From Deltaproteobacteria bacterium (lineage in GTDB: Bacteria > SAR324 > NAC60-12), in assembly GCA_038150265.1 (NCBI GenBank), contig JAYOTF010000003.1:32001-96000 (forward strand): a stretch of DNA of 64,000 nt, read 5' to 3'. Of this stretch, positions 1 through 64,000 are shown in pieces. Made by a program: the position numbers and the translations under genes. Position 1 is the first letter of the stretch; every line of letters begins with the position of its first letter. A model generated the notes under the pieces. The model did not search any database. It was not told the DNA's origin and saw nothing but the letters and a program-made list of their open reading frames with translations.

Positions 1-1128
1 CTTCATCGCCTTCACCTGGGCAGCCCCCCCGACTCGGGAGACGGAAATACCCACGTTAATGGCCGGACGGACACCGGAGTTGAACAGGTCAGCGGTCAGG
101 AAGATCTGGCCATCCGTAATCGAAATCACGTTGGTCGGAATGAAGGCCGAGACGTCACCGCCCTGGGTTTCGATCACGGGCAGCGCGGTCAGGGAGCCGG
201 CTCCCAGTCCGTCGTCCAGCTTGCAGGCCCGCTCGAGCAGGCGGCTGTGGAGGTAGAAGACGTCTCCCGGATACGCCTCACGTCCCGGCGGGCGGCGCAG
301 GAGCAAGGAGAGCTGGCGGTAGGCCACTGCCTGCTTGGACAGGTCATCGTACACGCAGAGGACGTGCTTGCCGGAGTCTCGGAAGTACTCGCCCATGCTG
401 ACGCCGGAGTACGGAGCCAGGAACTGGAGCGGAGCCGGCTCGGAGGCGGTTGCCGAAACGACGATCGTGTAGTCCATGGCACCCGCGTCTTCGAGCTTCT
501 TCACCAGTTGCGCCATCGTGGAGCGCTTCTGGCCGATTCCCACGTAGATGCAGACGACATCGCCGCCCTTCTGGTTGATGATCGTGTCAATCGCAATGGC
601 GGTCTTTCCGGTCTGGCGGTCGCCAATGATCAGCTCGCGCTGTCCTCGACCCACCGGGACCATGGAGTCGATGGCCTTGAGTCCGGTCTGCATCGGCTCA
701 TGAACCGACTTCCGGGCCACGATTCCGGGAGCAATGACTTCAATGAGGCGGGTCTCCGTGGTCTCCAGCGGACCCTTGCCGTCAATCGGATTGCCCAGCG
801 GATCGACCACGCGGCCCAGCATGCCTTCTCCAACCGGCACCTCGGCAATGCGCTCGGTTCGGCGGACCTCACTGCCTTCCTTGATGCCCGTATCGTCTCC
901 GAAGATCACGATACCGACGTTGTCTTCTTCCAGGTTGAGCACCATGCCCTGGACGCCATTGGAGAACTCAACCAGCTCTCCCGCTTGAACGCTGTCCAAC
1001 CCATGAACACGGGCAATACCGTCACCCACCACCAAGACGGTGCCGACTTCTGTCTTTGTTGCCTGCTTATCGAAATTCTCGATTTGCTTTTGGATGATCG
1101 CGCTGATCTCTTCTGCTCGGATCTTCAT
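1..1128 (-). CDS. atpA: F1F0 ATP synthase subunit alpha (3' end runs off the window)
   Basis: Not in the ORF track; translated by hand from ATG at 1128: [19 protein letters not shown]...[11 protein letters not shown]...GDRQTGKT (Walker A)...[27 protein letters not shown]. Confidence 0.98.
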
Positions 1129-1134
1129 AACTGC

Positions 1135-1677
1135 TCAACCTTGGATGATGGATTGGCGCACTCGATTCAGCTGATTGCGGAGGCTGCCGTCAATGACGGT
1201 GGAACCGATGCGGGTAACAACACCGCCAATGATGGACGGATCGATTTTTACAGTGACCGACACCTCCTTGCCAGAGGTTTGGGACAGTTGGGACTGGAGG
1301 CTCTGAACCAGCTCGGCAGAGGGTTCCTGGGCCACCGTGACTTCAGCCTCGACCTTGCCCATCGACGCCTTGACGAGTGCATCAAAGGCAATCGCGATGT
1401 CCGGCGCCAGCGCAATGCGGCGCTTGGACAAAAGAAAACGAAGGAAGGTGTGCACGCGGGCGCCGGTGCCCAGCTTCTCCAGCACCGCCACCAGAATGCT
1501 TTCCTTTGCGGTTCCGGACACTCGGGACGAGCTGAGGCTCTCGCGCAGGTCCTCACTGAGGGCGTAGGCCTCGGCAAAATCCTGGAGGTCCTGAACAACG
1601 GTCTCGAGGCTCTTCTCCGGTTGGGCTAGTGCCAGCAGCGCCTTGGCATACCGGCGGGCGATCACAGCTTGGCTCAC
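1135..1677 (-). CDS. atpH: ATP synthase subunit delta
   Basis: IARRYAKAL N-terminus; DPSIIGGVVTRIGSTVIDGSL C-terminus; lies between atpF and atpA. Confidence 0.96.
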   Translation of the reverse strand: MSQAVIARRYAKALLALAQPEKSLETVVQDLQDFAEAYALSEDLRESLSSSRVSGTAKESILVAVLEKLGTGARVHTFLRFLLSKRRIALAPDIAIAFDALVKASMGKVEAEVTVAQEPSAELVQSLQSQLSQTSGKEVSVTVKIDPSIIGGVVTRIGSTVIDGSLRNQLNRVRQSIIQG

Positions 1678-62023: not shown

Positions 62024-63033
62024 GCAGACCCCTGTTGCCGATCGGTGATGGCTTCCGGATGCCAGCACGCCACCCGATGCTGGGCACGGGGCTGAAGCAC
62101 CGGCACGTCTTGCTGACACCGCTCGGAGGCAAAGGCACAGCGTGGGTGAAACTTGCACCCCGGAGGCGGATCAATCAGGTTCGGGGGAGACCCCTTGATG
62201 CTCGAAAGCTGATCCTTGCCGGGTTCCAGCTTCGGCACCGACGCCAGCAGGCCCTGGGTGTAGGGGTGCTGCGAGCGGTAAAACAGCTCATGGACGCCTC
62301 CGATTTCCACAATTTCTCCGGCATACATGGTGGCAACGGTGTCGGCCATTTCGGCCGCAAGGGCCAGGTCGTGACTGATGAAGATGATGCTGAACTGCAG
62401 CACCCGCTGCATCTCCCGGAGCACCTCAATCATCGCCCGCTGCGTGAGGATGTCCAGGGCCGTGGTCGGTTCATCCAGGATGACAATCTGGGGCTGCAGG
62501 AGGACCCCGAGTGCCAGCAGCGTCCGTTGCTTCATGCCGCCACTGAGTTCGTGAGGATACGAGGCATACACCCGTTCCGGATCCAGCCGCACCAGTTCCA
62601 GCAAACGCCAGGAGCGCTTCCGGACCTCCTTCCGGTCCGTCCAGCCGTGTGCCCGAGCCGTATCTTCAAAATGCTGAGCCACCGTCAGCACCGGATTGAA
62701 GGCATTTTGAGCCCCCTGAAACACCATGGCGCAGGCCTGCCAGCGGAAGCTCCGGAGCTGACGCTTGCTGAGCTGCAGGACCTCCCGGATTTCCTGCTGA
62801 TGCTGGTGCCGGATGGTCCCTGCGACAATCTGGGCATTCCGGGGAAGCTTGCGGATCAGCGAGAGGCTGACAGTGGTCTTGCCGCTGCCGCTCTCTCCAA
62901 TCAGGGCCAGGGCTTCGTTTTGATGAAGCCGAAAAGAGACGTTATTCGTCGCCAGCACCTCCCCACGTTCCGCCTGATAGATGATGGAGAGGGCCTCAAC
63001 GTCCAGCACCACGTTTTCCGGAAGAGCCTCCAT
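62020..63033 (-). CDS. oppD: Opp/Dpp-family ABC ATPase (OppD-like)
   Basis: GESGSGKT, YPHELSGGMKQR, LDEPTTALD, ISHDL, PPGCKFHPRC. Confidence 0.92.
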   Translation of the reverse strand: MEALPENVVLDVEALSIIYQAERGEVLATNNVSFRLHQNEALALIGESGSGKTTVSLSLIRKLPRNAQIVAGTIRHQHQQEIREVLQLSKRQLRSFRWQACAMVFQGAQNAFNPVLTVAQHFEDTARAHGWTDRKEVRKRSWRLLELVRLDPERVYASYPHELSGGMKQRTLLALGVLLQPQIVILDEPTTALDILTQRAMIEVLREMQRVLQFSIIFISHDLALAAEMADTVATMYAGEIVEIGGVHELFYRSQHPYTQGLLASVPKLEPGKDQLSSIKGSPPNLIDPPPGCKFHPRCAFASERCQQDVPVLQPRAQHRVACWHPEAITDRQQGSA

Positions 63034-64000
63034 CACTTTCCTCGCAAACGGGGGTCAAACAGCTCTTCCAGGGCCCGGGCAAAGAGAACCAGACAGACCT
63101 GAAACAGGGCGATCGCCAGCACCGGAGAGAGCGCCATGCTGATGCCATCCGGATTGAAGAGCGTGCCACGGGTCCGGCCAAAGAAGAGCATGATGCCCCA
63201 GGTGTAGTCATTGATTGGAGCCAGCCCCAGCACCACCAATCCGATCTGTTCGTACATGGCCGAGGTGATGGCAAAGATCAGGTTGATCGCCACAAAGCTG
63301 ATCATGTTGGGCAGGATCTCCCGGAACATGATGTGCGGCGTTCCGAGCCCAAGCGACCGGGCGGCTTCCACAAAGTCACGCTCCCGGAGGCTCAGCACCT
63401 GCGCCCGGATGGCCCGCATCAGCGCTGGCCACCCGAGGAGGCCAATCAGCACCCCCAGCAGCAGCGTGTTCTCAAACGAAATCAGCCCGGCCAGCACCAC
63501 CAGTAACGGAAAACGCGGGATCGCCAGAAACAGGTTGGTGATGGCCGTCAGCGACTGATCGACCACGCCGCCGAATAATGCCGCCAGTGACCCCAGGCAC
63601 ACCGCGAGCACCGTGGAAAGAATGCCGCCCAGCAGCGCTGTCAGGATCAGCACCCGGCCTCCATGCACAATGTGCGACGCCAGGTCCCGGCCCTGGGTAT
63701 CGGTTCCCAGCAGCGACATGGGCCCAAGGGTGGGGTTCGAGATCACCACCGTTTCCTGGATCAGCTTCTGAAAGGCGGGGTCGTCTGCCTGCTCCACGGC
63801 TTCCTTCCAGGCCTGAGAGTAAACAAGTGTCGCCGCGATCTTCTGGTTGGCCACATCCTTCAGCGCGGCCTCAATGCCGGGTCCGGAAATGCGGCTGCGC
63901 CACCGGTAGCGCTTGGCCTTGGGAGGCGTGTCTGTGGTCTCGGCAAACTCCTTGAGGAACAGCAGGCCTCCGGTCTGACTGACCACGCCCACCGTTTCTC
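63033..64000 (-). CDS. oppC: Opp/Dpp-family ABC permease (OppC-like), 5' end outside the window
   Basis: LLGTDTQGRD, EAA loop RERDFVEAARSLG, EILPN, C-terminal DPRLR; frame open to the window edge. Confidence 0.9.
   Translation of the reverse strand, partial: ETVGVVSQTGGLLFLKEFAETTDTPPKAKRYRWRSRISGPGIEAALKDVANQKIAATLVYSQAWKEAVEQADDPAFQKLIQETVVISNPTLGPMSLLGTDTQGRDLASHIVHGGRVLILTALLGGILSTVLAVCLGSLAALFGGVVDQSLTAITNLFLAIPRFPLLVVLAGLISFENTLLLGVLIGLLGWPALMRAIRAQVLSLRERDFVEAARSLGLGTPHIMFREILPNMISFVAINLIFAITSAMYEQIGLVVLGLAPINDYTWGIMLFFGRTRGTLFNPDGISMALSPVLAIALFQVCLVLFARALEELFDPRLRGK

Follow-up and report, generated by a model that had tools for sequence, protein, structure and literature searches.

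TCCGGA, a hyper-abundant palindrome with helically phased spacing in genomes of the SAR324 lineage

Occurrence of TCCGGA in the window and its genome

The 64,000-nucleotide stretch of DNA analyzed here (the window) spans positions 32001-96000 of contig C3 (JAYOTF010000003.1) in the draft genome of an uncultured SAR324 bacterium, referred to below as G000. It carries genes for ATP synthase subunits, a YgbB-family protein, an NtrC-type sigma-54 activator and a sensor histidine kinase (Table 1), and throughout these genes and the DNA between them it is strewn with the hexamer palindrome TCCGGA. A first reading of the sequence had drawn attention to this recurrence and likened it to the highly iterated palindrome (HIP) HIP1. 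The recurrence is confirmed by counting. There are 204 copies in the window compared to 22.74 ± 3.98 in 100 dinucleotide-preserving shuffles, none of which reaches 204 (maximum 33). It is a property of the entire genome. The G000 assembly (87 contigs, 3,393,712 bp, 61.2% GC, 97.8% complete) contains 9,711 sites, or one per 349 bp, and TCCGGA is the most frequent of all its hexamers.

The ratio of observed to expected copies in G000 is 8.69 when base composition alone is modeled, and first- and second-order Markov models give 7.57 and 3.95. At third order the ratio is 2.39, and TCCGGA remains the top hexamer. A fourth-order model lowers the ratio to 1.22, which is unsurprising given that the signal is already contained in the pentamers TCCGG and CCGGA. 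The enrichment also outlasts a correction for tetramer bias, which the sequence-only reading had named as one way to explain it. CCGG is raised only 1.36-fold, TCCGGA accounts for 24% of CCGG occurrences (19,422 of 81,574 two-strand counts), and the remaining NCCGGN words are found at 0.66-2.26 times expectation. One-mismatch variants had been described as common; they are raised, but merely mildly (CCCGGA 2.26-fold, ACCGGA 1.62-fold and GCCGGA 1.40-fold). Variants at the outer positions range from 1.40- to 2.26-fold and those at inner positions from 0.51- to 2.95-fold, with no bias toward outer positions. The products of cytosine deamination are not depleted (TCTGGA/TCCAGA 2.57-fold, TTCGGA/TCCGAA 1.34-fold).

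All 17 positions that the sequence-only reading listed for 5803-8784 are genuine TCCGGA. The longest open reading frames (ORFs) of the activator and the upstream sensor kinase, which contain this stretch, overlap by ~190 bp, and the true start of the activator probably lies further inside its ORF.

Other words in G000 also deviate from composition. CTAG occurs at 0.05 times expectation and TA at 0.31 times, and hexamer palindromes containing CTAG are all at 0.03-0.06 times. TACTAC/GTAGTA and TAGTAG/CTACTA stand 5- to 10-fold over low-order Markov expectation despite the overall rarity of TA.

Table 1. Coordinates of features in the window and of genes considered in relatives (window positions unless a contig or locus is named)
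Feature	Position	Strand	Remarks
Whole-window TCCGGA set	1..64000		204 copies: 167 in called genes, 37 intergenic
ATP synthase alpha (partial), delta, b and b' genes	1..2764	-	One TCCGGA, at 1513
YgbB-family gene	2886-3398	+	Contains TCCGGA at 2925
NtrC-type sigma-54 activator gene	5634-7181	-	Pfam Sigma54_activat, Response_reg, HTH_8
17-copy stretch	5803..8784		Inside activator and sensor kinase genes
Sensor histidine kinase gene	6991-8742	-	Pfam HATPase_c, HisKA, dCache_1
Same-face pair, 32 bp (three turns)	12669..12706		Sites 12669, 12701
Same-face pair, 41 bp centre-to-centre (four turns)	33233..33279		Sites 33233, 33274
Same-face pair, 42 bp	33887..33934		Sites 33887, 33929
Same-face pair, 52 bp (five turns)	41355..41412		From window position list
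Further 51-53 bp pairs (starts)	15888, 17160, 24409, 29930, 45391, 48440, 53518		Read from window position list
C45 gene row	L001:35-3159		Reverse transcriptase, SPPY methyltransferase, 311-aa protein
C51-type gene, G000	C51:248-1387		Cut by contig end
C51-type gene, full-length	L004:451-2643	+
C51-type gene, full-length	L006:1408-3147	-
MGMT-type domain fused to kinase, G001	L173:14391-15713	-	Opposite-phase gene comparison

A uniform pressure on DNA

Genes were called in G000 with a simple ORF and codon-usage model (2,741 genes, 87.6% of the genome). When synonymous codons are permuted inside each gene, such that every protein, every dipeptide and the codon usage of each gene are preserved, genic TCCGGA falls from 8,651 copies to 2,090 ± 35. 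The excess is present in all three reading frames, with 2,032 observed versus 525 shuffled copies for TCC GGA, 2,379 versus 735 for xTC CGG Axx and 4,240 versus 830 for xxT CCG GAx. Intergenic DNA carries 2.35 copies per kb where 0.31 would be expected (7.5-fold). The earlier remark that the word appears in different reading frames and between genes is thus borne out, and the enrichment outlives the null that preserves codons and dipeptides, on which the sequence-only reading had staked its proposal. Since the excess remains against synonymous shuffling and occurs in all frames and outside genes, it is a property of the DNA and not of proteins or codons.

These comparisons dispose of the possibility that TCCGGA is an artefact of composition, codon or dipeptide usage, or a piece of a longer repeat family. 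The drop to 1.22 under the fourth-order model is what can be said for this view, which has next to no chance of being right: it is refuted by the synonymous shuffle and the third-order Markov rank, relatives with 43-61% GC show the same 7- to 10-fold enrichment, and the flanks of the word are weak. The flanking preference is symmetric (GCY|TCCGGA|RGC; extended consensus GCYTCCGGARGC), and conserved sequence ends within ~3 bp of the hexamer. Flanks are alike in 965 intergenic and 8,673 coding sites, with respective frequencies of 0.43 and 0.41 for G at -3, 0.40 and 0.39 for C at -2, and 0.33 and 0.32 for T at -1. Repeats of the repetitive extragenic palindrome (REP) or miniature inverted-repeat transposable element (MITE) type are longer, mostly extragenic, imperfect palindromes, whereas 89% of TCCGGA sites (8,691 of 9,711) are coding.

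Positions at which the encoded protein permits TCCGGA are occupied 41% of the time in G000 (8,651 of 21,016). Occupancy is 34% in Ser-Gly, 38% in [FLIV]-Arg-[IMTNKSR] and 49% in x-Pro-[Asp/Glu] contexts. It is uniform among the 1,136 genes with at least eight permissible positions (χ²/df 0.996). Because occupancy is this homogeneous, the impression that the word is sparse in the atp genes does not stand as a departure: the count of two copies in positions 1-3400 is correct, but it lies within binomial expectation. Windows of 5 kb (n = 632) contain a mean of 14.5 copies with a variance of 16.5 and a minimum of 3, so there are no word-free islands. Per-gene occupancy and the 5-kb windows disclose no heterogeneity by gene or region of the kind that expression or foreign DNA might produce. 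A shallow dip to 1.6-1.8 copies per kb is found at start codons. The dipeptides and tripeptides that permit TCCGGA are themselves ~1.6 times more common than codon permutation predicts (2,090 versus 1,282), and the pressure has therefore probably reached protein sequence. In sum, a uniform pressure at the DNA level, which takes no account of frame, gene or coding status, keeps ~41% of permissible positions occupied.

Turnover of individual copies

The fate of single sites can be followed in G002, a genome of the same genus whose sequence runs collinear to the window with 80% DNA identity. A 400-kb sample of G002 yields 314 aligned orthologue pairs (113,318 codons) with 87.9% amino-acid identity and 52.6% identity at four-fold sites. 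Many positions that permit TCCGGA in both genomes carry it in only one (Table 2). The retention index of TCCGGA is 0.23, 0.46 and 0.24 in the three frames, and that of other synonymous variants in the same contexts is 0.12-0.40. Among frequent hexamers its retention ranks 74th of 115, 30th of 97 and 34th of 96. Individual copies have no special conservation, and their gain and loss proceed roughly as fast as synonymous change. The pressure therefore acts on density, which is what is held, and not on particular sites.

Table 2. Occupancy of positions permissible for TCCGGA in both G000 and G002
Context	Both	G000 only	G002 only	Neither
Ser-Gly	78	105	60	297
xTC CGG Axx	151	89	42	338
xxT CCG GAx	217	169	113	283

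Distribution among relatives

Word counts in 88 genomes of the phylum indicate that TCCGGA is enriched in part of family f1 (genera g1, g11, g12, g4, g6 and g3), in part of family f7 and in one f4 genome. Genera g2, g5 and g8 lack the enrichment, as does most of family f2. In sampled sequence, the ratio to expectation on composition is 7.0 for G002 (60% GC), 7.6 for G001 (60%), 7.6 for G013 (57%) and 9.9 for G045 (43%), and it is 1.07 for G014 (45%) and 0 for G083 (41%). Enrichment is not tied to high G+C content, since G045 reaches the highest of these values. Across family f1, GC content extends from 43% (G045) and 45% (G014) through 57% (G013) to 61% (G000), with enrichment at both ends of the range. 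An 88-kb sample of the non-enriched G014 contains no substitute hyper-abundant palindrome.

Genera g38 and g40-43 of family f7 have 15-267 copies of TCCGGA in genomes of 2.7-3.7 Mb. Extreme depletion specific to TCCGGA was considered for this part of the family and rejected, as the G083 sample exhibits a CCGG-wide depletion (CCGG 0.12-fold, CpG 0.59-fold, GGCC 2.34-fold). The reversed control word AGGCCT is itself biased (0.27- to 3.2-fold), and ratios to it need care. Avoidance of CCGG with an excess of GGCC, as in this sample, is as expected under a CCGG-specific restriction system. Avoidance of restriction sites and the state of G000 share a CCGG core, but the sign in G000 is the opposite (enrichment), and the depletion in the G083 sample covers all CCGG words.

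Helical spacing of neighboring copies

Neighboring copies of TCCGGA in G000 are not placed independently of each other. Distances of up to 400 bp (11,246 pairs) exhibit a periodicity that peaks at 10.45 bp with a relative amplitude of 0.14. Control hexamers with similar numbers of pairs (5,000-12,000) have amplitudes of 0.03-0.07. When sites are redealt among protein-permissible positions, with their number in each gene and frame held constant, the amplitude is 0.029 ± 0.010, with a maximum of 0.057 in 200 runs, and the complete set of permissible positions gives 0.011. The phase is equal in the three distance-modulo-3 classes and in both halves of the contigs. Bootstrapping over contigs places the period at 10.47 ± 0.03 bp, which is the repeat of B-DNA. 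Periodicity arising from protein α-helices would give ~10.8 nt by our own figure, and the measured value differs from this.

The correlation is strongest between close copies. Its amplitude is 0.29 at 12-100 bp and 0.145, 0.10 and 0.05 in the next three 100-bp intervals; the correlation extends to ~300 bp. An amplitude of ~0.10 appears again at 400-500 bp with a phase shift of -1.0 rad, which is taken as noise, and no signal is present beyond 500 bp in an analysis extended to 2 kb. Pairs at 50-54 bp, for example, number 187 in the genome where 139 would be expected at random, and several pairs on the same face of the helix can be read directly from the window (Table 1). Phasing is specific to the exact word. 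Outer one-mismatch variants are weakly phased (0.059), and no helical phasing was found in G000 for inner variants, other CCGG words or A+T content.

Lineage-specific sign of the spacing rule

In G013, a genome of genus g12, the same period occurs with opposite phase. The 788 kb of sequence has an amplitude of 0.44 at 18-120 bp and a phase near π. Pairs peak at 26-28, 36-39, 45-50 and 56-60 bp, and there are almost none at 20-23, 30-33 and 40-43 bp. The opposite phase persists under bootstrapping (real part -0.42 ± 0.05), in each half of the data and in the three distance classes, and none of 300 runs of the permissible-site null reproduces it.

Pairs were then counted across whole genomes in 45 members of the family using six 5-bp windows, three for copies on the same face of the helix (29-33, 40-44 and 50-54 bp) and three for copies on opposite faces (24-28, 35-39 and 45-49 bp). 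The random expectation for each window is 5n²/L. Related genomes are non-independent samples, and 5-bp windows only approximate a period of 10.47 bp. Three alternating turns are visible in these counts, and their totals differ strongly among lineages (Table 3). In g11, which has 18 species, four have too few pairs for tabulation; 13 of the 14 tabulated species favor same-face pairs, with ratios of 1.4-5.7, and the remaining one (G040) is not significant. G061, G004 and G007 have no same- or opposite-face effect, and G016 and G011 are weakly opposite. The sign differs even inside genus g1, where G000 and G002 oppose G001.

Table 3. Same-face and opposite-face TCCGGA pairs in selected genomes
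Genome (genus)	Same face	Opposite face	P
G000 (g1)	504	313	2e-11
G002 (g1)	298	200	1e-5
G001 (g1)	189	288	7e-6
G013 (g12)	99	290	7.5e-23
G062 (g12)	71	197	7.0e-15
G063 (g12)	9	96	1.6e-19
G018 (g11)	367	75	2.9e-47
G052 (g11)	119	21	8.2e-18
G005 (g4)	138	52	3.5e-10
G015 (g4)	79	47	5.5e-3

Opposite-face windows stay near random, at ~0.5-1.5 times expectation in strongly enriched genera and up to ~2 times, apart from isolated outliers, where pairs are few. Same-face windows extend from 0.05 times (G063, three and four turns) to 7.5 times (G052). What varies is thus the frequency of same-face pairs, which are favored in G000, G002, g11 and g4 and avoided in g12 and G001. Because only these windows depart so far from random, the same-face configuration is the one that matters.

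Same-face pairs as the variable quantity can also be read as the trace of a two-site nuclease, a restriction-like or defense enzyme that works in a type IIE or IIF manner, with the dense word labeling the chromosome as self. Close same-face pairs would then be a working unit or a hazard, depending on the enzyme of the lineage. Two-site enzymes are sensitive to helical phase at short distances. Such pairs are nearly eliminated in g12, most of all in G063, and the patchy distribution of the word in the phylum (parts of f1 and f7, and f4) is what mobile restriction-modification genes would produce. Searches for the Bse634I (PF07832) and NgoMIV (PF09015) families found no match in G000, G013, G044, G083 and G087; control genomes are equally silent, so these negatives carry little weight. 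A cognate methyltransferase was not found either (see below), and we know of no precedent for a restriction site that is hyper-abundant in its own host. A two-site nuclease is on balance a decidedly unlikely cause.

Candidate genes

In the repair drive proposed for HIP1 (Elhai 2015), as it would apply here, an orphan methyltransferase marks TCCGGA and repair converts near-cognate sequences; a methyltransferase with biased mismatch repair was likewise among the causes put forward in the sequence-only reading. The conversion could proceed by methyl-directed mismatch repair or by very-short-patch repair, or dense strand-discrimination marks could be selected up to a density like that of GATC. Helical spacing would follow if a SeqA-like protein read hemimethylated same-face pairs. 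GATC occurs roughly once per 250 bp in E. coli, and the density of TCCGGA in G000 is near this figure. Elhai 2015 (PMC4390886) argues that HIPs should, from mismatch repair, settle near one copy per kb. A drive also predicts both uniform occupancy and fast turnover.

Profiles for C5 methyltransferases (PF00145), Vsr (PF03852) and PF02384 have no match in G000, which is 97.8% complete, so absence is unproven. PF01555 matches two genes, and PF02086 matches only the one on contig C51. The motif [SDN]PP[YFW] has 25 hits among the 2,741 predicted proteins, and the eight unexplained ones that were scanned are ordinary enzymes or transporters and not methyltransferases. The first of the two amino-methyltransferase-like genes lies on contig C45 and encodes 258 aa with an SPPY motif (PF01555). 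It has a close relative in G001 only. In its gene row it is accompanied by a neighboring reverse transcriptase (469 aa, RVT_1) and by a 311-aa protein that matches no Pfam family, and the row looks, from its gene content, like a defence-type island.

The second gene, on contig C51, encodes a protein that is 579-730 aa long in G013 and G002, with motif I preceding motif IV and an N-terminal region of 200-350 residues composed of Arg/Asp/Glu-rich repeats. Its nearest solved relatives match at the catalytic motifs only. It is the sole PF02086-type match, in single copy, in G000, G002, G013, G044 and G014, which counts in favor of the drive. It was found in 26 of 31 relatives, enriched or not, and is equally present and conserved at full length, with 49% identity, in the non-enriched G003 and G014. 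No copy was found in the enriched G018. The catalytic motif is SPPY in most members, NPPY in G013 and APPA in G004, a genome with 3.8-fold enrichment. Neither the C45 nor the C51 gene follows enrichment across relatives. As far as the sequences can tell, this inventory assigns no methyltransferase to TCCGGA and excludes none, specificity being unreadable at this level.

These results give no support to a methyltransferase with biased mismatch repair. PF00145 and Vsr have no match in G000, the two methyltransferase-like genes do not track the word, and neither deamination products nor other one-mismatch neighbors are depleted. Moreover, the basic drive leaves spacing unexplained, and same-face avoidance in g12 is not predicted. 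MutS, which the drive would use, was found in all five genomes searched whatever their TCCGGA status. Repair drive linked to methylation is therefore an unlikely explanation, albeit the least improbable of the alternatives to a dedicated DNA-binding protein.

Biased uptake of TCCGGA-bearing DNA followed by recombination could also raise the density of the word. DNA uptake sequences likewise have uniform occupancy, turn over rapidly and occur in all frames, and the uptake protein ComEC (PF03772) is present. It is found in five of five genomes searched, including the non-enriched G014 and G083; ComEC and MutS are uninformative because they are present irrespective of TCCGGA status. A hexamer discriminates little, and uptake predicts neither the helical spacing nor its change of sign. 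A role as an uptake sequence is accordingly very improbable.

Genes that might set the sign of the spacing rule were sought in two opposite-phase genomes among those without a match in G000. The G013 sample has 108 such genes out of 648, and the G001 sample 48 out of 657. The two sets clearly share only two genes, one for an amidohydrolase and one for a kinase with a fused MGMT-type DNA-binding domain. A third match is weak (short ORFs of 78 and 64 aa, 32% identity). Small proteins made up of the MGMT-type domain (~105-130 aa) occur in 32 of 45 family genomes, with fusion to an APH-type kinase in G001 and g2; none was found in G000 or G002. The domain was rejected as the cause of the sign because it is also present in same-face genera. 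Histone-fold proteins (PF00808) have no match in five genomes.

A putative DNA-binding factor

A pair correlation of the kind described above requires an agent able to detect simultaneously which helical face each of two copies lies on. For this reason we favor, tentatively and with real room for error, the view that TCCGGA is the recognition word of a putative two-fold symmetric, sequence-specific DNA-binding factor that acts along the whole chromosome, and that it is upheld by weak genome-wide pressure. Among the causes that the sequence-only reading had proposed, a chromosome-organizing protein gives the best fit, as copies of the word follow the helical repeat. Factors bound at two copies would interact when they face the same side. 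This interaction could be direct at two to three turns and could operate further out through bending, bridging or a filament. It would benefit G000, G002, g11 and g4 and be detrimental to g12 and G001. The factor would most likely serve to fold or mark the chromosome, and hyper-abundance may reflect weak selection for many sites or a repair bias coupled to binding.

A bolder version of this proposal is a 'helical-face code', in which a hexamer in about four of every ten permissible positions is read in pairs by a putative bridging protein or two-site nuclease and the pair rule is switched between sister lineages. We regard this as somewhat unlikely. If true, it would represent a new kind of bacterial chromatin or self-marking that is independent of known methyltransferase and Vsr mechanisms.

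Several observations weigh against a dedicated DNA-binding factor. Uniform binomial occupancy and neutral-like turnover fit a functionless mutational or repair drive equally well. Same-face pairs are not better retained between G000 and G002 than opposite-face pairs (23 of 118 versus 12 of 76, Fisher P = 0.57), in a comparison of low power. A flip of sign within one genus asks much of a single conserved protein. No operator-like intergenic clusters of TCCGGA that might mark an autoregulated reader gene were found; all 16 modest clusters sit in genes. Profile and gene-content searches brought up no candidate TCCGGA-binding protein. The ORF model for G000 also makes imperfect calls, for example picking 5928-6551 on the plus strand instead of the true regulator gene on the other strand.

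Comparison with known systems

The closest known kind of element is the highly iterated palindromes of cyanobacteria. Like HIP1 (GCGATCGC) and alternate cyanobacterial HIPs (Elhai 2015, PMC4390886; Xu et al. 2018, PMC5861425), TCCGGA is a short GC-rich palindrome spread over the whole genome, in all frames of coding sequence and in non-coding DNA. Its abundance likewise differs from one related lineage to the next, and what selection or drive works on is the number of copies and not the single copy. Being DNA-level, frame-independent, genome-wide and variable among lineages, it can fairly be labeled HIP1-like. TCCGGA differs from HIP1 in that it is a hexamer and not an octamer, belongs to a different phylum and is enriched 7- to 10-fold instead of 15- to 300-fold.

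Other differences concern mechanism. According to Elhai 2015 (PMC4390886), a HIP is abundant only where a methyltransferase for that palindrome exists, and single-nucleotide deviants of HIPs fall preferentially at the outer positions. For TCCGGA, no such enzyme could be assigned in G000, and the deviants lack an outer bias. In contrast to HIP1 as described by Xu et al. 2018 (PMC5861425), TCCGGA sites are not more conserved than controls. The periodicity of HIP1 given there is 18-94 kb, whereas that of TCCGGA is helical (10.47 bp) and has a lineage-specific sign. Helical spacing with such a sign is thus something that TCCGGA adds to the traits reported for HIP1. Among the papers listed by full-text searches, none deals with an excess of TCCGGA in a bacterial genome or with palindromes in SAR324, and the word TCCGGA does not occur in Elhai 2015 (PMC4390886).

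Two other kinds of dispersed word invite comparison. GATC, together with Dam, SeqA and MutH in Gammaproteobacteria, is also a palindrome that occurs once per few hundred bp over the whole chromosome. SeqA reads GATC pairs on the same helical face that are up to about three turns apart. However, GATC needs no enrichment to reach its density, whereas TCCGGA has no methyltransferase assigned to it and some lineages avoid its same-face pairs. The DNA uptake sequences (DUS) of Neisseria and the uptake signal sequences (USS) of Pasteurellaceae resemble TCCGGA in their genome-wide, frame-tolerant excess and in the turnover of sites. Known uptake sequences are 9-12 nt long, non-palindromic and present about once per kb, unlike a 6-bp palindrome with a weak flank bias. 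To our knowledge, helical pair spacing has not been reported for them.

Implications

The reason for HIP1 in cyanobacteria has been an open question for decades. TCCGGA is a second, independent case of the HIP type in another phylum, and it offers more tests: the word is a hexamer, sister lineages with and without it exist, and helical spacing with a lineage-dependent sign provides a physical read-out. The spacing ties TCCGGA to a face-specific interaction on double-stranded DNA, which leaves fewer kinds of factor to look for. With 41% of permissible positions carrying the word, the pressure is strong enough to influence which codons are used. Composition-based binning, codon models and selection scans applied to these genomes should account for it.

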